A stretch of 32,000 nucleotides of DNA, from positions 75,759 through 107,758 of the forward strand of contig CAYHAA010000007.1 in assembly GCA_964354495.1 (NCBI GenBank), in the 5' to 3' direction. Source of the DNA: an uncultured archaeon (GTDB lineage: Archaea > Asgardarchaeota > Thorarchaeia > Thorarchaeales > Thorarchaeaceae). How positions within the stretch are numbered: position 1 is the first letter of the stretch; every line of letters begins with the position of its first letter. Made by a program: the position numbers and the translations under genes. Shown here in pieces: positions 4,142 through 10,746 of the stretch. The notes beneath the pieces were generated by a model that was given only the letters and a program-made list of their open reading frames with translations, had not been told where the DNA came from and made no database searches.

Positions 4142-4423
4142 CTATGACTCTGCTCGTTGGCCGTTCTTCGCGAGCTCTTCTTGGATTGCACTCTCAAGCT
4201 TGGCTGTTGACACGTTCCCCTCAAAGTATTGAGAGCCCACAAGGACCCCCTGCCATGACACTCCAAGCTCTTTGGCCGTCTTGCTATTGGCTAAGTCCTC
4301 ACTATACTCAACAACATCTCTGTACTTCCTAACAGCCTCGTAGATTCGTCCCAAGAAACCAGACACACTGCAGCTGCAGACCCCGACTGGCAGGAACACC
4401 TTTACCGCTACTTTTTCACTCAA
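4142..4423 (-). CDS. Small thioredoxin-fold-like protein with CxC motif
   Basis: 93 aa with VCSCS near the N-terminus; beta-alpha-beta pattern and AKELGV..GVLV segment; 28 bp downstream of acr3. Confidence 0.55.
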   Translation of the reverse strand: MSEKVAVKVFLPVGVCSCSVSGFLGRIYEAVRKYRDVVEYSEDLANSKTAKELGVSWQGVLVGSQYFEGNVSTAKLESAIQEELAKNGQRAES

Positions 4424-4451: not shown

Positions 4452-5501
4452 TTACATTGGTGTGCCTTTCCAGAATTCCTTCCTTCTGAGGTATTTGGAA
4501 AGGTATACCAACCCAAGCATAACCGGCACTTCCCAGAAAAGGCCCATTGTTGTTCCAAGAGCCGCGATGGATCCGACACCATACATCGAGATTGCTGTAG
4601 CAATGGCGATTTCAAAGTGACTAGAAGACCCAATGATCACAGTAATCGTTGCCTCTCTATAGGCGAGTCTTGCCAATCGAGTTATCAAAAGGCCATAGCT
4701 GACAGTTATCACAAAATGGAGCAATAGCGGAATTGAAACAAGTCCGAGCAGATCTGGATGTTCCAGCATTACAACGCCGTTCAGCGAGAAGAGCACAACT
4801 AACGTAGTCAGTAGAGCAACTAGGGCCAGTTTACCAACTGCTGGCTGATACTTCGTCGTGAACCAATCTTTTCCCTTCCAGTTCACAAGTGTCTTCCTTG
4901 TTACCAATCCAAGAAGCATTGGGGCACCAATAAAGAATGTTACAGAGATGACTAATAGCACGCGGTTAATAGGAATGTTGGAAATTCCAGTGAGTATTGC
5001 TACTACGGGTGCATAGAGCACTAGAATCGTTGCCGTGTTTAGAGTTGTGTTCACAATATTCTGTTCTTGGTTTCCCTCAGCGAGATATCCCCAGACCAGC
5101 ACCATTGCTGTACAGGGACTGGACGCAAGCAATATCACAGCTACAATCAACTGCTCATTGCCTGCCAGAAAGGTCCGAGCAAGTAGATATCCAACAATTG
5201 GTGCTACTATCCAATTCGATACGAGTGTGATTATTATTGGTTTAGGATTTCTTCTGAGTTTTCTTAATTCAGATCCTTGAATATTAAGCATGGCTGGATA
5301 CATCATCAAGAATAGACATATCCCGATTGGGACAGATATGCCGGCAATCTGCCATGAGTCTATAGCTTCACCAATCCCGGGCACTACTTGGGACAGGAAT
5401 ATTCCCAACACCATGCAAATGCCAATCCACAGTGGCAAGTACTTCTCAAATGTACTGAGCTTCTTCCCGCTTGCTACTTGATTTGGTTGGCTAGTTGACA
5501 A
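4452..5501 (-). CDS. acr3: ACR3-family arsenite efflux transporter
   Basis: FEKYLPLWI, LMMYPAM, NWIVAP, SPCTAMVLVW (conserved Cys), SSHFEIAIATA and EVPVMLGLV motifs; about 10 TM helices. Confidence 0.96.
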   Translation of the reverse strand: MSTSQPNQVASGKKLSTFEKYLPLWIGICMVLGIFLSQVVPGIGEAIDSWQIAGISVPIGICLFLMMYPAMLNIQGSELRKLRRNPKPIIITLVSNWIVAPIVGYLLARTFLAGNEQLIVAVILLASSPCTAMVLVWGYLAEGNQEQNIVNTTLNTATILVLYAPVVAILTGISNIPINRVLLVISVTFFIGAPMLLGLVTRKTLVNWKGKDWFTTKYQPAVGKLALVALLTTLVVLFSLNGVVMLEHPDLLGLVSIPLLLHFVITVSYGLLITRLARLAYREATITVIIGSSSHFEIAIATAISMYGVGSIAALGTTMGLFWEVPVMLGLVYLSKYLRRKEFWKGTPM

Positions 5502-5576: not shown

Positions 5577-5596
5577 ATATCGGATAATCTCGATAT
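5577..5596. promoter_or_regulatory. Inverted repeat ATATCG-N8-CGATAT, putative ArsR operator upstream of acr3
   Basis: aaATATCGgataatctCGATATtt, overlapping a minus-strand TATA-like TTAAATA. The same architecture recurs at 6222-6241. Confidence 0.7.
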
Positions 5597-5685: not shown

Positions 5686-5982
5686 CTATCTGCTTGTCTT
5701 CTCATCAGCAAGTGAGCGCAGATCACGAATCATGCTACTGATGCGTGAATCACTGAGCTTGTAGAGTTTCTTGGTACCATCGCGTCTAACAGAAAGAATA
5801 CCCGATCTCACAAGTTGACTCAAGTATGAAGACACAGTAGACTGTGAGAGACCCATTTCCGGATAGATCTCACATTGACAGCGTTCACCATCTTCCAAGA
5901 GCTCCACGATTTTCAGCCGTTCGTGATTCGATAGTGCCTTGTGGAACTGCATTCGCCATTCCATTCTTCTGTCAATATCCAT
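5686..5982 (-). CDS. arsR: ArsR/SmtB family transcriptional repressor
   Basis: KALSNHERLKIVELL, ERCQCEI (ELCVCD-like alpha3 Cys pair), wHTH LSQSTVSSYLSQL and RRDG..LY; adjacent to acr3. Confidence 0.93.
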   Translation of the reverse strand: MDIDRRMEWRMQFHKALSNHERLKIVELLEDGERCQCEIYPEMGLSQSTVSSYLSQLVRSGILSVRRDGTKKLYKLSDSRISSMIRDLRSLADEKTSR

Positions 5983-6042: not shown

Positions 6043-6059
6043 ATTTCGGATATCGATAT
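6043..6059. promoter_or_regulatory. Variant operator (ATTTCG-N5-CGATAT) upstream of arsR
   Basis: Minus strand AAATATCGA---TATCCGAAAT aligns with AAATATCGAGATTATCCGATAT of the acr3 site with a 3-nt gap and one mismatch; adjacent CTATATAC TATA-like box. Confidence 0.45.
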
Positions 6060-6221
6060 TTGTATATAGCGATTATTACCGAACCATCAATAATTAGTCA
6101 TATTTCTATACAGATTATGAAGGCCGGGATACGTTTCCGCGTGTTCTTATGTGGTTGTCTTCAAAGATGGACCTCAAGAGGGCATAACGCAAGCATCATT
6201 GGTCACCATAGAAACACTGAT

Positions 6222-6241
6222 ATATCGAAATAATCCGATAT
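6222..6241. promoter_or_regulatory. Inverted repeat ATATCG-N8-CGATAT, putative ArsR operator upstream of the HdrA-N/ferredoxin/DGC-GcvH operon
   Basis: tATATCGaaataatcCGATATtt, 20 bp before the ATG at 6261. Confidence 0.7.
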
Positions 6242-6260
6242 TTGATTGGACTTGTCCACA

Positions 6261-6638
6261 ATGAGTTCTGAAAAACCTGCCTTCATAATGTGTGTATGCA
6301 CAGGCAAATGTCCGGGCTTTGCGAAGATGGACATCTGGGATTTTATCAACACGGTTAGAATGACTCTTCCTGTTAAGTATGGAGTCATTCATCCACAACT
6401 CTGTGAACGCGATGGTGATGCCTACCTTGAGAATACCCTGACACCTGGAGAAAAAGTGTTCGTTGCTGGCTGTGCTCCTGCAATGCAATACAAGCTCTTC
6501 CGTGATTCATTCGCAAAGAAGGGACTCGACGTGAAGAAGGATCTTGTACCTATTGACGTGCGTGACATGACCACTGATGAGGCAGTAGAGAAGGTTTCAC
6601 AGGAGTTGAAAAAGCATGGATATGATGTCGAAGGATGA
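6261..6638 (+). CDS. Stand-alone heterodisulfide reductase subunit A N-terminal-like domain protein
   Basis: FIMCVCTGKC...QLCE...VFVAGCAP..LFR...GL...IDVRD parallels the HdrA N-terminal pattern (VxxCxC, MCS, VVAACSP, TFR, ANIRE). ATG 6261 preferred over TTG 6246. Confidence 0.72.
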   Translation: MSSEKPAFIMCVCTGKCPGFAKMDIWDFINTVRMTLPVKYGVIHPQLCERDGDAYLENTLTPGEKVFVAGCAPAMQYKLFRDSFAKKGLDVKKDLVPIDVRDMTTDEAVEKVSQELKKHGYDVEG

Positions 6639-6930
6639 GTCGAAGCCCAGTACAACTTTCATGGGCGTCAGTCGAGAGAAAATACCATGGTGGCCAATCG
6701 TAGACCTAGGGAAATGCGATGGCTGCAATGGTGAGTACGACTGCCTGAAGTTCTGTCCTCATAGAGTCTACAAGCCGCTTGAGGACTCCTCCAGAATCGA
6801 GGTTGAGAACCCATACAACTGCGTGGTCTTTTGCACAGCCTGTAGTAAGATGTGTCCTAGGGATGCAATCTCCTTTCCTGCAAAAGCGAACATCCTGAAG
6901 ATCATCAAAGAAGAACGTGCCAACAAATGA
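6616..6930 (+). CDS. 2x[4Fe-4S] ferredoxin-family protein
   Basis: CDGCNGEYDCLKFCP and CVVFCTACSKMCP; overlaps both neighbours (translational coupling). Confidence 0.88.
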   Translation: MDMMSKDESKPSTTFMGVSREKIPWWPIVDLGKCDGCNGEYDCLKFCPHRVYKPLEDSSRIEVENPYNCVVFCTACSKMCPRDAISFPAKANILKIIKEERANK

Positions 6931-7778
6931 GGTCGATGCGAGTGGTGAAGAAATACATTCTACCCTGTGCAGGCTATGACCGTCCGGGTGGAGAGGTTTC
7001 TAGGGCTGTTGCAGAGCAACTAGCTAGGAATCGTGACGATGTTGTAATTGGAAGCATGGGCGCGCTATACAAGGAACGTCCCGGTGAGATGCGTGACTTC
7101 AGGGCCTCAGAGGTGATTTGCCTCGATGGTTGTGGAACACACTGTGCCTCGGAACTTGCGATTGCACGGGGACGGAATGATGGAGCAGTTGTTTCTATTC
7201 CTGAGGCTGCAGGTTCAGGTGACGATTTTGAACAAAAGGTCCGCCATGTTATCGACGCCATGTCAAAGCATCTAGAAAAGAGAAAGGCGAAGGCCTCGCC
7301 CTCAACCAAAGAGATCTCCTCATTCTCTCTCGAATATCTTGAGGAAAAATTCGACAAGTTCACGCTTAGAGTCGCCAAAGGTATGTTGTACTCCGATAAC
7401 GACTTCTGGGTCAGGATTGAAGGCGACAATGTCCGGATTGGTGCTTCAGATTTTCTTCAGCAGATGATATCTGATGTATATTATGTGAATCTCGTCGAGC
7501 CCGGCCATCATGTCGATATGTTTGATGACGCAGGGAAGATGGAGTCGACGAAGATCTTAGTGGAGATAATCGTCCCCCTGACTGGAACCATAATCGAAGT
7601 CAACAGCTCATTGGAGAATAGTCCAGAACTGATTAACGAGAGCCCATATGATAAGGGATGGTTCTACGTCATAAGACCGGACGACATTGACGAACTGGAA
7701 CTGCTCAGGGATGCATCAAGCTATTTGCTTTACGCCTTGGCAAAGGCAAAAGAAGAGATTGGAAAGAAGGTGGAATAG
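6927..7778 (+). CDS. Fusion of a DGC putative Zn-binding domain (N-term) and a glycine cleavage H-protein-like lipoyl carrier (C-term)
   Basis: N-term PCAG...LDGCGTHCA. C-term DFWVRIEGDNVRIGASDFLQ...MESTK(209)ILVEIIVPLTGTIIEVNSSLENSPELINESPYDKGWF, which retains the lipoyl Lys (AAG at 7551-7553). Confidence 0.9.
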   Translation: MRSMRVVKKYILPCAGYDRPGGEVSRAVAEQLARNRDDVVIGSMGALYKERPGEMRDFRASEVICLDGCGTHCASELAIARGRNDGAVVSIPEAAGSGDDFEQKVRHVIDAMSKHLEKRKAKASPSTKEISSFSLEYLEEKFDKFTLRVAKGMLYSDNDFWVRIEGDNVRIGASDFLQQMISDVYYVNLVEPGHHVDMFDDAGKMESTKILVEIIVPLTGTIIEVNSSLENSPELINESPYDKGWFYVIRPDDIDELELLRDASSYLLYALAKAKEEIGKKVE

Positions 7779-7781
7779 AGA

Positions 7782-8165
7782 TTGAAGAAAGTAGTCATTC
7801 CATGTAGTGGAATGGGAAAAGCATTGGGAGCTGTCACACGTGAGACTATCCCACTCTTGCCAGACTCCAAGAGTCCCCATGAGTATAGGACAGTCTGTCT
7901 GCCATTGCTGATGACCGATGATGATGAGTCAAAACGAATAGTGCTAGAATCAGCTGTCTATACGATCGATGGCTGTCCAAAGAAGTGTGCGTCAACTGTA
8001 GTCAAACATGTTGGAGCAACGCCAGTCATGGAGATACTAGCGGCGAGAGTTCTTGCAGAGCATAGAGAGCACAAACCCGAAACTGTACTTGACGTCGGAG
8101 ATGGTGGACGCCTTCTTGCGAAAGATATCGTTGAGATAATCGCGAACGATGGAGGGACAGATTGA
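7782..8165 (+). CDS. DGC-domain putative Zn-binding protein
   Basis: PCSG...VCLPLL...IDGCPKKCA, all four conserved Cys present. Confidence 0.85.
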   Translation: MKKVVIPCSGMGKALGAVTRETIPLLPDSKSPHEYRTVCLPLLMTDDDESKRIVLESAVYTIDGCPKKCASTVVKHVGATPVMEILAARVLAEHREHKPETVLDVGDGGRLLAKDIVEIIANDGGTD

Positions 8166-8569
8166 TGACATTCAAACCGAAGGTTGGTCTAATCTCGTGT
8201 AGTGGTGAAGCATGTCCTGGAGGGAGAATCTCACGTGCTGCAACACTTGAGGTCCTTCATCACCTGAAACCAACTGACACAGTCACGATATGTCTCCCAC
8301 TATTCCTTGCCGGAGATGAGGGAGAGCGCGGATTTGCAAGCGTCTTTCCAACTATCACGGTGGATGGGTGCAGTAAACTCTGCGCAGCAAAGGGCACAGC
8401 CAAATATAGTAGCGAGCCTGCTGTGAGAATAAACATCGAGGACTATACAGGTGAGGGATGTACAAGTACTGATGAAGAGATGCGGACACAGAGTGACAAC
8501 AATCTGATCAAGAGAGTCGCCCAAGACTTGGCAGCTCATGTCGATCATCTTCGACAAGAGTGGGAGTGA
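8162..8569 (+). CDS. DGC-domain putative Zn-binding protein
   Basis: SCSGEACPGG...ICLPLF...VDGCSKLCA; overlaps the previous stop. Confidence 0.87.
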   Translation: MMTFKPKVGLISCSGEACPGGRISRAATLEVLHHLKPTDTVTICLPLFLAGDEGERGFASVFPTITVDGCSKLCAAKGTAKYSSEPAVRINIEDYTGEGCTSTDEEMRTQSDNNLIKRVAQDLAAHVDHLRQEWE

Positions 8570-8578
8570 TCCAGTGTC

Positions 8579-9771
8579 TTGAAGGGTAAACTTCAAACAC
8601 GCGCGCTCGATTCAGCTATCTCTAGCTTCGATATCACGCTCCTGAGCCGACTAATCAGAGATGCGGCGACAAGCGGTCATATTCGTGATACATGTGACTA
8701 CCTGCATATCGCCATGGGAAGTGCACATTCCATTAGCTCTGGAGTCTTGCGAGTAGCTGTCGTTTCGGCGTTTGAAATGTATGACTTCAAAGTTCTTGAT
8801 GTTGATCCTCTTGAGATTCTCTCTGGACTTCAGGACCTTGAACCCCAGGACATGATAGAATCTGCACGAAGAGCAATCATGTCTGCACTTGAGTTTCAAG
8901 TCCATAGGAGAAACACATTCTTTCTTGCAGTGGACAGGCTCCACAGTTCTGAAGCCGCAGTCCTTGTCAAGGATATCATCAACGCCCGGAGAACTGAGTT
9001 GGAGGAGCTCTGTCACAGCAGTCCAACTCTAGAGCAACTCGCTGCCACTTACTATGGTTTTCAGTTTCTGACCTCTCAAATCAGAAGATCGGAGCTTGGT
9101 GAAGACACTCAGAAGTTATTCGAATGCCTTGAACTCGATACCGCTCAGGATGTCAAAGTACCCTCGAATGCATTGAAACCCGAGGCGGTCGTATTTCGAA
9201 ATGTATCCGCGCAGACAGATGAGCTTCTCAGAAACACTCTCTATCTGACTGGGTATGACTCGGGCGAGCGGGCAAAGTCGGCTGCCTGTCTTGGAGAGCT
9301 GGCTGATCCCAGAGCTGGACTTTACCTCTCAAAGGCGACGAGGGATGAGTACTCATGGGTCCGGAAGGCTGCTGTGTCTGCTCTTGGGCGAATAAGGTTC
9401 CTCGAAGACCCCGGGTGTGTTGTTGATGTCTTGAAGGATCTTGACGAAGGAACCAGAAATGCGGCATTGGAAAGCGTCTGTTCCGTGGGACCCAGGCTGT
9501 TCCTCTACTCCTCAATACTCTAGAGAATTACAGGGGCATCTCCTATCCTGAAGCGATTGAGGCAGCCAAGAAGGCTCACCCGCGAGCCTTGGACAATCTC
9601 GAGGCAGTATTGCAGTATCACTCTCGTACAGCCAGAGCCTTGGCCGCAAACGCACTAGGTAGAATCGGTGACAAGAGAGCCATCTCAGCACTTGAGAGAG
9701 CTATGCAGGATGAAGAATTCGAAGTGAGATCTGCAGCACAAGACGCGCTCATTGAAATGAAAAGACTGTGA
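8579..9771 (+). pseudogene. HEAT (PBS-lyase-like) repeat protein split by one frameshift near 9470-9480 (ORFs 8579-9523 and 9589-9771)
   Basis: The first frame has HEAT repeats up to DEGTRNAALES. The -1 frame is open from 9445 and continues RLFRGTQAVPLLLNTLE...RALAANALGRIGDKRAISALERAMQDEEFEVRSAAQDAL. GGAGTGA RBS precedes TTG 8579. Confidence 0.75.
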
Positions 9772-9882: not shown

Positions 9883-10647
9883 TCAGATGATTCTCATCAA
9901 AATCATGACCGCAATCACCCACACTACAATGCCGAGCCCGGCCTTAATCTTTTGAGCTTGTATCCTCATGCTGGTTCTCGCCCCGAGATTCCCACCGATG
10001 AGGACGACAATGCCAGTCACCAAAATCAAGGGAATATCGAAAGCATGAAATGCCGCATGGCCAAGTAGACCGGAGAATGCTGAGAAGGATACAATCGCAT
10101 GCGACGATCCTGCCGCGAACTTTGTAGGGTACTTGCAGATATAGATCAGGAATGGAACGATTAGCACTCCGCCGCCAATTCCTAGCAAGCCCGATATGAG
10201 TCCTACACCGAAACTGAATAGCACGATGAGTGGGTACATGGTAGTGACCACGCGTTTTGGAAATTCATCCTCAATCTTTCCCCGTTCCCAAAACGTATAG
10301 ACCATCCTCCCTCCGAGACCAGCCAAGAAGAACACAAACAACCACAACAAGAAGGTTTCATCAACAAATACAACTAAGGCTCCGCCCATAAAAGCGCCCA
10401 GGCAGACACCAGGTATGAATAGGAAGGACGTCCTCAAGTCTATCATCTTCTTGCGATACAAGACGTAACCCGCAGACAGCGATGTTATTAGAGTCAACAC
10501 TAAGGATGTGGATGTGGAAATCGATACCGCATAGCCAAGTAGAATCAACAGCGGGGAGTACATCGACCCTCCGCCCTGACCAAACATCGAGAACACAAAA
10601 GCTATCAGAAAGACAAAGATGGTAGTGTATAGAAGTACAATATCCAT
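9883..10647 (-). CDS. Sulfite exporter TauE/SafE family membrane protein
   Basis: Two repeats of the GxGGG signature (FGQGGGSMYSPLL; LGIGGGVLIVPFL), AAGSS and about 8 TM helices. ATG 10647 or GTG 10659. Confidence 0.9.
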   Translation of the reverse strand: MDIVLLYTTIFVFLIAFVFSMFGQGGGSMYSPLLILLGYAVSISTSTSLVLTLITSLSAGYVLYRKKMIDLRTSFLFIPGVCLGAFMGGALVVFVDETFLLWLFVFFLAGLGGRMVYTFWERGKIEDEFPKRVVTTMYPLIVLFSFGVGLISGLLGIGGGVLIVPFLIYICKYPTKFAAGSSHAIVSFSAFSGLLGHAAFHAFDIPLILVTGIVVLIGGNLGARTSMRIQAQKIKAGLGIVVWVIAVMILMRII

Positions 10648-10746
10648 ATTGATGCACACCCGAGGGTTTTCGGCAAACTGGACTGAGCTGGTTGGTCAAT
10701 CAGTGGAAACGCTGCCCTTTGGGATTCGAAGGGTTCCAGCATGACG

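Follow-up and report, generated by a model that had tools for sequence, protein, structure and literature searches.

Among the closest described counterparts of the locus analyzed here is the classical ArsR-regulated ars operon (arsR-acr3/arsB-arsC with accessory genes of the thioredoxin system). The locus lies in a 32,000-nt stretch of DNA (the window, i.e., the whole stretch that was analyzed) from an Asgard archaeon that is of Thorarchaeota type by the names attached to its homologues, with a genome completeness of 97.7%. Like classical ars operons, it has a CxC-type ArsR, a palindromic candidate operator, a pump that is very likely of the ACR3 family and accessory thiol-redox genes co-regulated with efflux. 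However, the operon in the window is without arsC, and its accessories form a module of a lipoyl-carrier fusion (DGC-GcvH), three DGC domains in all, a protein resembling the N-terminal domain of HdrA (HdrA-N-like) and a ferredoxin. No arsenic-resistance role is described in the searchable literature for DGC, GcvH-fusion, HdrA-N-like or ferredoxin accessories.

Other described systems share parts of this arrangement. In Pseudodesulfovibrio mercurii ND132, DGC (PF08859) and Thioredoxin_3 genes occur in an ArsR5-ArsP operon that was reported to be up-regulated by arsenic in RNA-seq, the function of the DGC protein being called unknown there (bioRxiv 10.1101/2022.10.17.512643). That operon (ArsR5-ArsP-ArsE(Thioredoxin_3)-DGC) likewise places DGC and a small thioredoxin-like gene under an ArsR and is reported to be arsenic-induced, but it differs in having one DGC gene, in lacking GcvH, ferredoxin and the HdrA-N-like protein, and in using ArsP instead of Acr3 as the pump. 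Lipoyl carriers that serve as cycling dithiols outside glycine cleavage are known from Lpd/lipoyl-protein/Ohr-OsmC relays (Xylella Ohr; Trichomonas hydrogenosomal L-protein, H-protein and OsmC; PMC5384416 and references therein), in which protein-bound lipoyl groups reduce Ohr/OsmC disulfides (PMC5384416). A bacterial variant of the module with unfused GcvH contains OsmC and, at one locus (L031), also Lpd. In contrast, the window is without Lpd or OsmC, and ferredoxin and Fe-S proteins seem to supply the input; the constant partners in the module, the DGC proteins, are absent from the known Lpd/OsmC relays, and the module is controlled by an arsenic-type repressor. In our survey, the 40 Asgard and Bacillota loci with HdrA-N-like and ferredoxin genes were without OsmC, and Lpd was adjacent in just 2.

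GcvH-L of Staphylococcus aureus and Streptococcus pyogenes (5a35; PMC12440151) is, like the GcvH domain of the module, an extra H-protein paralogue outside the glycine cleavage system (GCS) and encoded in a stress-related operon, and the two match in fold (Z 15.7, root-mean-square deviation [rmsd] 1.7, 112 residues). Its partners, however, are SirTM, a macrodomain protein and LplA2 (PMC12440151), whereas those in the module are DGC, Fe-S proteins and ArsR, and the module is without ADP-ribosylation genes. Finally, HdrA of heterodisulfide reductase (5odc, 7bkb, 9sfi) has an N-terminal [4Fe-4S] domain with four cysteines that recalls the module protein, but just ~95 residues of the latter match, and it is without the thioredoxin-reductase-like FAD domain, the inserted or C-terminal ferredoxin domain and the HdrB/C partner. 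No paper describing a GcvH/DGC/HdrA-N-like/ferredoxin module was found in the literature that could be searched, as an earlier reading of the window's letters (the original prediction) had supposed.

Gene content and linkage to arsenic genes

The locus comprises two divergent groups of genes with the following features.

4142-4423, minus strand: p93, small CxC protein of 93 residues, downstream of acr3, with homologues at module loci
4452-5501, minus strand: Acr3, very likely an ACR3-family arsenite efflux permease (NCBIfam TIGR00832)
5577-5596, no strand: operator-like palindrome, copy 1, ATATCG-N8-CGATAT, 76 nt upstream of the acr3 start
5686-5982, minus strand: ArsR/SmtB repressor with CxC motif RCQCE (Pfam HTH_5, NCBIfam HTH_metalloreg)
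6222-6241, no strand: palindrome, copy 2, 20 nt upstream of the ATG at 6261
6246-6638, plus strand: stand-alone HdrA-N-terminal-domain-like protein, 130 residues (profile matches to HdrA)
6616-6930, plus strand: 2x[4Fe-4S] ferredoxin, 104 residues (Pfam Fer4, 8 Cys)
6927-7778, plus strand: DGC-GcvH fusion, 283 residues (Pfam GCV_H and DGC)
7782-8165, plus strand: DGC2 (Pfam DGC)
8162-8569, plus strand: DGC3 (Pfam DGC)
8579-9771, plus strand: HEAT-repeat gene, split into 8579-9523 and 9589-9771 (Pfam HEAT_2)
9883-10659, minus strand: TauE/SafE-family membrane protein, convergent (Pfam TauE, 147 bits)

From 6246 (or 6261) to 9523, the six plus-strand open reading frames (ORFs) overlap or are separated by gaps of at most 9 nt; the ORF at 9589-9771 follows after a gap of 65 nt. 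The positions and tight coupling of these genes agreed with the original prediction, and its domain calls (ferredoxin, GcvH, three DGC, HEAT and TauE) were borne out by Pfam and NCBIfam. Its six-gene unit stood in part. Five genes, i.e., those for HdrA-N-like protein, ferredoxin, DGC-GcvH, DGC2 and DGC3, constitute the conserved unit. Homologues of the HEAT gene and of TauE were each found in just 1 of 20 Asgard loci (that of HEAT in opposite orientation; TauE also in 1 of 20 Bacillota loci), and these two genes are therefore not conserved members. In Asgard archaea the small CxC protein p93 (4142-4423), which the prediction had omitted, is also part of the unit.

A stand-alone HdrA-N-like gene occurred in ~65 of 400 Asgard genomes, and within the genus of the window's genome in 8 of 27. 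The module is an accessory element of patchy distribution in Asgard archaea, as one would expect of an accessory trait for resistance; this distribution is relevant to arsenic cycling in anoxic sediments. We examined 20 Asgard loci from several families and found the five-gene core intact in 18, an ArsR gene in 17 and Acr3 within 9 kb in 12. Gene order varied among them; at L001, for instance, acr3, the module, p93 and arsR follow one another on a single strand. Since the order of genes around the core differs between lineages, the linkage has been maintained and is not just a product of common descent. Of 401 species of Bacillota sampled evenly, 22 carried an HdrA-N-like gene. At the 20 loci examined, an ArsR-family gene was present without exception, Acr3 at 13 and a pI258-type ArsC-like gene at 10. 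Half of these loci had the full module, accompanied by ArsR (10), Acr3 (4), an ArsM-like gene (3) and ArsC (3), with Lpd directly upstream of the module in L145 and L153. The other ten (L154-L163; genomes G633, G691, G638, G769, G792, G496, G536, G606, G665 and G717) had a minimal unit of ArsR, ferredoxin and HdrA-N-like genes, in the order ferredoxin then HdrA-N-like, without GcvH or DGC. Both arsC and acr3 were nearby in 7 of these 10, and the minimal units formed a separate, long-branched clade on the tree.

Chloroflexota and Proteobacteria have the unfused-GcvH variant; the four loci with unfused GcvH were all without the pair of HdrA-N-like and ferredoxin genes. At L031 the order is ArsR, ArsC, ArsM-like, Acr3, RnfB-type Fe-S protein, GcvH, DGC2, DGC3, OsmC, Lpd, Thioredoxin_3. 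L020 and L026 resemble it: the RnfB-type Fe-S protein was found in L020 and L031, OsmC in L020, L026 and L031, and Lpd with Thioredoxin_3 in L031. The DGC-GcvH fusion co-occurred with the HdrA-N-like gene and ferredoxin in every locus having them. An arsC gene adjoins the module in seven loci (L007, L016, L031, L142, L144, L149 and L150). These results provide strong evidence of a recurrent linkage to arsR, acr3, arsC and arsM in both archaea and bacteria, in rearranged orders, and the module is real, conserved and arsenic-linked. The original prediction had tied the module to arsR and acr3, and in the neighborhood survey both genes recurred beside it; homologous operons mostly retain them.

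Larger arsenic islands were seen at the Thorarchaeota loci L124, L130, L132 and L004, each of which includes an RnfB-type Fe-S protein; L124 has an ArsM-like methyltransferase, and true Thioredoxin_3 genes are present in L124, L130 and L132. Among the bacteria, Eubacterium callanderi (G400; contigs C16 and C5) and Acetobacterium malicum (G401; contigs C22 and C11) carry two full module copies each, and A. malicum has further solo DGC genes, as well as one module copy with two pI258-type arsC genes ~4 kb upstream. The E. callanderi locus L006 was tried as an ars island and rejected, its neighbors being ABC transporters and a nitrogenase-like protein. Since these cultured acetogens carry the module, it can be tested at the bench.

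The ArsR protein matched Pfam HTH_5 (47 bits; cut-off 22) and NCBIfam HTH_metalloreg (69.2 bits; cut-off 55). It reads GERCQCE, with the CxC where type-1 As(III) sites have theirs, in the helix before the recognition helix (ELCVCDL in R773 ArsR); the third Cys of R773 is absent. A CxC was present at the same position in 31 of the 31 ArsR homologues listed from module loci. Acr3 scored 282.3 bits against TIGR00832, 0.5 bit short of the cut-off of 282.8, over model positions 1-326 of 327, and a homologue with 72% identity carries Pfam SBF and SBF_like. Judged by these profile matches, Acr3 very likely belongs to the ACR3 family.

The palindrome ATATCG-N8-CGATAT had exactly two exact matches in the 32 kb (5577-5596 and 6222-6241), while shuffled sequences gave 0. 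One precedes acr3 and the other the first gene of the module, as anticipated by the original prediction, which had placed both behind the same operator. Allowing at most one mismatch, the palindrome was also centred 13-33 nt upstream of the aligned start of the HdrA-N-like gene in 10 other Asgard loci from two families, and it lay upstream of acr3 in three other loci (L004, L124 and L130). It precedes the module even where acr3 sits directly upstream on the same strand. Because the palindrome is conserved across related loci, this phylogenetic footprint supports ATATCG-N8-CGATAT as a candidate ArsR operator shared by the module and acr3. A third, shorter-spaced relative of the operator was seen at 6043-6062 of the window, 61-80 nt upstream of arsR, with the perfect 10-nt palindrome ATATCGATAT; this element may be a site of autoregulation.

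No RNA dataset was listed for the 5.6-kb stretch of the locus. In two metatranscriptome libraries, short contigs matched 6762-6985, 8001-8107 and 9603-9771 with full or almost full identity, the uncovered parts of the locus being uninformative. These contigs are a hint of module expression and could stem from DNA carry-over.

Proteins of the module

The 283-residue DGC-GcvH fusion matched Pfam GCV_H with 100 bits and DGC with 37.5 bits (DGC cut-off 27) and has ~100 homologues, mostly from Thorarchaeota. In the AlphaFold2 (AF2) model (predicted local distance difference test [pLDDT] 85.5), the GcvH domain superposed on the pea H-protein 1dxm with a VIA Z of 23.7 and an rmsd of 0.8 over 131 residues; as modelled, the domain has a genuine H-protein fold. 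The lipoyl Lys, K209, lies in the ESTK motif of the hairpin and is invariant in 57 archaeal and bacterial homologues, which agrees with the intact lysine noted at the outset, and the protein would be lipoylated at this residue. The fused DGC1 has three invariant Cys (C14, C69 and C73) and a near-invariant Ser at the fourth position.

Against the equivalog TIGR00527, the GcvH half scored 101.6 bits, under the cut-off of 115.85. A canonical gcvH (147 bits, Pfam GCV_H) adjoins gcvT on contig 3 of the same genome, and the DGC-GcvH copy is therefore an extra lipoyl-carrier paralogue and not the housekeeping H protein of the GCS. The genome has lipoate-ligase-family genes and a lipoyl E2, the latter on a contig other than that of the window. 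Consistent with the earlier remark that the window has no HdrB/C, 2-oxoacid dehydrogenase or other GCS genes, the window's contig had no CCG/HdrB or E2 match. A third, orphan GcvH-like gene (176-residue frame, 121 bits) was observed at a distance of ~3 kb from one that encodes two CCG (HdrB-type) domains (genome G000, C1:435092-435427 and C1:438189-438782); the two may form a pair of LbpA/Hdr-like type that has nothing to do with the arsenic locus.

The gene for the 130-residue HdrA-N-like protein likely starts at the ATG at 6261. In a 9-sequence alignment, its homologues were 54-81% identical across archaea and bacteria and shared five invariant Cys (C16, C18, C22, C53 and C76). Its profile matched residues 1-93 of the HdrA chains 9sfi (E 0.009), 7bkb (0.013) and 5odc (0.26), four of its Cys aligning with those of the solved chains; the match is weak, collinear and repeated. 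The same profile matched the N-termini of HdrA-sized frames of 650-1150 residues in Asgard genomes (E 1e-6 to 1e-9), and the protein scored 14.5 bits against NCBIfam HdrA (cut-off 1400; E 0.006). A Pfam search gave no family, and the HdrA N-terminal domain was the sole family matched. The original HdrA-N call thereby holds, weakly yet consistently, and these matches indicate that the protein is an HdrA N-terminal domain standing alone, not an HdrA, and a predicted [4Fe-4S] protein. Selenocysteine was considered for this protein and rejected, since the internal TGA flags in four Asgard genomes were natural stop codons.

The ferredoxin gene always adjoined the HdrA-N-like gene in the surveyed loci. 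Its product has eight Cys in two cluster motifs ending in CP, and it matched Pfam Fer4 (23.2 bits; cut-off 21.1) as well as the dicluster families Fer4_7, Fer4_9 and Fer4_10 (E ~4e-5, below their cut-offs). Its best NCBIfam matches were HgcB-type mercury-methylation ferredoxins, at 33-36 bits and far under the cut-offs. In P. mercurii, hgcAB has been reported to be under an ArsR-like regulator (bioRxiv 10.1101/2022.10.17.512643). The likeness to HgcB may be a coincidence of small ferredoxins.

DGC2 and DGC3 scored 46.4 and 54.2 bits against Pfam DGC (cut-off 27). Their invariant Cys are C8, C39, C65 and C69 in DGC2 (12 sequences) and C13, C44, C70 and C74 in the DGC3 alignment, so both have the four conserved Cys noted for PF08859 as a putative metal site, of which the fused DGC1 keeps three. 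The D-G-C motif was invariant or almost so in all three DGC alignments. DGC3 was modelled by AF2 (pLDDT 85, predicted template modelling score 0.82) as an alpha/beta domain of flavodoxin-like fold, in which the conserved Cys lie at the C-terminal ends of strands 1-3 or immediately behind them. Searched against the PDB with Foldseek, the DGC fold had no match at E <= 0.001; by VIA its best Z was 8.5-8.9 (3pu6, an uncharacterized protein), tied with many unrelated flavodoxin-like folds. A search of the AlphaFold DB with DGC3 returned DGC clusters only. HdrA and MvhD were not among the listed fold-match rows for DGC, from which their exclusion does not follow. DGC and HdrA-N-like proteins were also tried as distant homologues and rejected, as hhalign aligned the GGC/DGC motif alone, with a probability of <=0.3%.

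Modelled together, DGC2 and DGC3 gave a predicted-complex score of 0.50, against 0.00 for the best control, which counts as weak support. Of 80 solved complexes, 58 reached the mark for this score, as did 2 of 110 mismatched pairs; at scores of 0.60 or less, just 7 of the 80 solved complexes, and both of the mismatches, reach it. The runs agreed in at least 92% of contacts with partner pLDDT of at least 74, and on these models DGC2 and DGC3 probably form a pair. A DGC3 with an extra C-terminal domain of ~90 residues was seen in an Acidobacteriota locus (L016:11373-12059) and in unfused Chloroflexota variants (L020:10872-11588 and L026:2441-3154). The extra domain starts with a vicinal Cys motif (CAC or CC) and had no Pfam match.

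In p93, C16 and C18 were invariant in 17 sequences and form a CxC after the predicted first strand. Its homologues stand directly behind DGC3 in most of the surveyed Thorarchaeota loci and beside ArsR in other Asgard loci. Assignment of p93 to ArsD or thioredoxin by sequence was tried and rejected: there was no PDB match at E <= 10 and no Pfam family. Its likeness to Thioredoxin_3 comes from ESM Atlas features alone (0.90, 179 shared) and is a lead, so that p93 is possibly a thioredoxin-fold protein of Thioredoxin_3 type.

A proposed relay and alternative explanations

We propose, at a probability of roughly 40%, that the module is a relay, derepressed by arsenite, in which electrons from ferredoxin reach a lipoyl dithiol by way of Fe-S proteins and which provides reducing power for arsenic detoxification. 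The locus would be a regulon under arsenite control, made up of two divergent units (arsR-acr3-p93 and the five-gene module) that are both preceded by a copy of the ArsR operator. As(III) would release the CxC-type ArsR, and both the Acr3 pump and a low-potential thiol-reducing relay would then be made. Electrons might pass from reduced ferredoxin to the 2x[4Fe-4S] ferredoxin, on to the HdrA-N-like [4Fe-4S] protein and from there to the DGC domains; the latter, of flavodoxin-like fold, could bind a metal or cluster through three or four Cys and would reduce the lipoyl disulfide of the fused GcvH domain. The resulting dihydrolipoyl arm would be a dedicated dithiol for arsenic detoxification. 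Most likely, it would keep the CxC thioredoxin-like p93 reduced and, through p93, ArsC- or ArsM-type enzymes. In the unfused bacterial variant, Lpd and the RnfB-type Fe-S protein would replace the ferredoxin input, and OsmC would be added as an acceptor. The middle of the relay (GcvH, DGC2 and DGC3) would thus be constant, the input being either ferredoxin with HdrA-N-like protein and fused DGC1 or an RnfB-type Fe-S protein with Lpd, and the ends being p93/Thioredoxin_3, OsmC and ars enzymes.

Since Lpd, which reduces lipoyl groups, and OsmC, whose relatives are reduced by lipoyl proteins, occur beside the module, the lipoyl arm appears to be redox-cycled; the pattern of partners in fused and unfused variants, together with Lpd in L145 and L153, suggests that its electron inputs are interchangeable. 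Lipoyl dithiols are a textbook target of arsenite, and a dedicated lipoyl carrier in arsenic regulons would make the victim of arsenite a tool. The module points to an undescribed step in the way anaerobes cope with arsenic, and it may show where strict anaerobes, in which ferredoxin takes the place of NAD(P)H-linked thiol reductases, obtain the power for arsenic detoxification. It also gives the DGC domain (PF08859) and the free-standing HdrA N-terminal domain a concrete, testable context.

Several observations weigh against this relay. The ArsM-like and ArsC-like genes of the window's genome (C2 and C27, respectively) are unlinked to the module, and the electron acceptor is therefore a guess. 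Since ten Bacillota loci have ferredoxin and HdrA-N-like genes without GcvH or DGC, the Fe-S pair may act without the lipoyl arm, i.e., it may have an arsenic-related role that needs none. At the E. callanderi locus L006, the module stands among ABC-transporter genes with an ArsR-family gene as its sole ars-type neighbor, and related genomes are not independent samples. For the DGC proteins, sites for Zn, Fe-S and As(III) are indistinguishable from sequence, hhalign gives no homology to the HdrA-N-like protein, and the fold is without a specific solved relative by Foldseek against the PDB or by VIA. To our knowledge, there is no biochemical datum for any DGC protein.

A bolder reading, which we regard as possible though rather unlikely, is that the core is a self-contained arsenic-detoxification machine of anaerobes, in which the DGC domains form a new class of thiol enzymes that bind Fe-S or arsenic and, driven by ferredoxin by way of the HdrA-N-like cluster protein, employ a protein-bound lipoyl dithiol to act on arsenic itself. 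Examples would be reduction of As(V) or of pentavalent organoarsenicals, or the handing of As(III) to efflux. Such a mechanism would be apart from the chemistry of ArsC, thioredoxin and glutaredoxin and common to Asgard archaea and several bacterial phyla.

The module might instead trap As(III) as a metallochaperone, the dihydrolipoyl arm and the Cys sites of DGC1-3 and p93 binding arsenite and handing it to Acr3, much as ArsD does to ArsA, while the Fe-S proteins merely keep thiols reduced. Vicinal dithiols such as dihydrolipoamide do bind trivalent arsenicals, and p93 offers an invariant CxC after its predicted first strand. DGC1 has exactly three invariant Cys, the usual coordination number of As(III) at ArsR, ArsD and ArsA sites, and the module is co-regulated with acr3, as judged by the shared palindrome, and often adjacent to it. 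However, Acr3 is not known to us to require a chaperone and was not within 9 kb in 8 of 20 Asgard and 7 of 20 Bacillota loci, p93 is not detectably related in sequence to ArsD or to any PDB chain, and the addition of OsmC, and in one case Lpd, to the unfused variants fits redox cycling better than stoichiometric binding. We therefore consider a trap unlikely. Somewhat more doubtful still is a ferredoxin-driven reductase, in which a DGC Cys after strand 1, in a glycine-rich loop, would reduce arsenate or methylarsenate and the lipoyl arm would recycle the disulfide, the module replacing or supplementing ArsC/thioredoxin in strict anaerobes. The Thorarchaeota operons are without arsC, and no PF03960 ArsC was found in the window's genome (97.7% complete); moreover, DGC has weak fold matches that include arsenate reductases of the low-molecular-weight phosphatase type (8p5n: Foldseek E 0.03; VIA Z 6.4, rmsd 3.5, 108 residues). 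Yet dozens of unrelated flavodoxin-like folds matched at least as well (best Z 8.5), contig 27 of the genome carries a pI258-type ArsC-like gene complete with its catalytic Cys triad (C10/C82/C89), and arsC adjoins the module in the seven loci named above, which argues against simple replacement. The role in place of ArsC that had first been suggested is weakened by these last two findings.

Given its OsmC-bearing variants, the module could also be a defence against peroxide or oxidative stress that is co-induced by arsenite, i.e., a lipoyl-dependent relay of peroxidase type whose archaeal version lost or outsourced OsmC. OsmC stands directly behind DGC3 in L020, L026 and L031, followed in L031 by Lpd, and OsmC-like genes are present on contig 15 of the window's genome. 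Lipoyl proteins are physiological reductants of Ohr/OsmC (PMC5384416), and a GcvH-like carrier promotes resistance to oxidative stress in S. aureus (PMC12440151). This explanation is nevertheless improbable: none of the 40 Asgard and Bacillota loci that carry the ferredoxin and HdrA-N-like genes had OsmC, the regulators are not peroxide sensors but ArsR proteins of CxC type with an operator in common with an arsenite pump, and the hosts are strict anaerobes. There is little to recommend a spare or decoy carrier, by which an arsenite-induced H protein would protect or resupply the lipoyl groups of As(III)-poisoned E2 or GCS. The genome's canonical GcvH, E2 and lipoate-ligase-family genes do represent would-be As(III) targets, and GcvH-L is a lipoyl donor and stress-protected reservoir in S. 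aureus (PMC12440151), but the strict co-inheritance of three DGC domains, ferredoxin and HdrA-N-like protein would be left unexplained, and the examined loci showed no gene for a lipoyl amidotransferase or ligase. The most improbable explanation is sulfur trafficking of the sHdr/LbpA kind, e.g., for thioarsenates, with TauE exporting sulfite. A GcvH-like carrier with an Hdr-related domain recalls LbpA-sHdr systems, and TauE is convergent in the window; this role, too, had been suggested, and it is without support, as no HdrB/C-type gene is nearby. Contig 7 had no CCG/HdrB-type gene, neither tblastn nor Pfam showed sHdr-LbpA partner genes at the surveyed loci, no sulfurtransferase (DsrE/TusA) was seen there, TauE was present in just 1 of 20 Asgard and 1 of 20 Bacillota loci, and of HdrA the N-terminal domain alone is present, without the flavin domain.

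The HEAT-repeat gene beside the module

The two HEAT ORFs behind DGC3 belong to a single gene, which a 1-nt difference near 9494 interrupts. On a contig of the public run X7, an extra G after 9494, in a run of G, joins them into a single frame of 397 residues. The split at ~9494 is either a real frameshift or an assembly error in the window.

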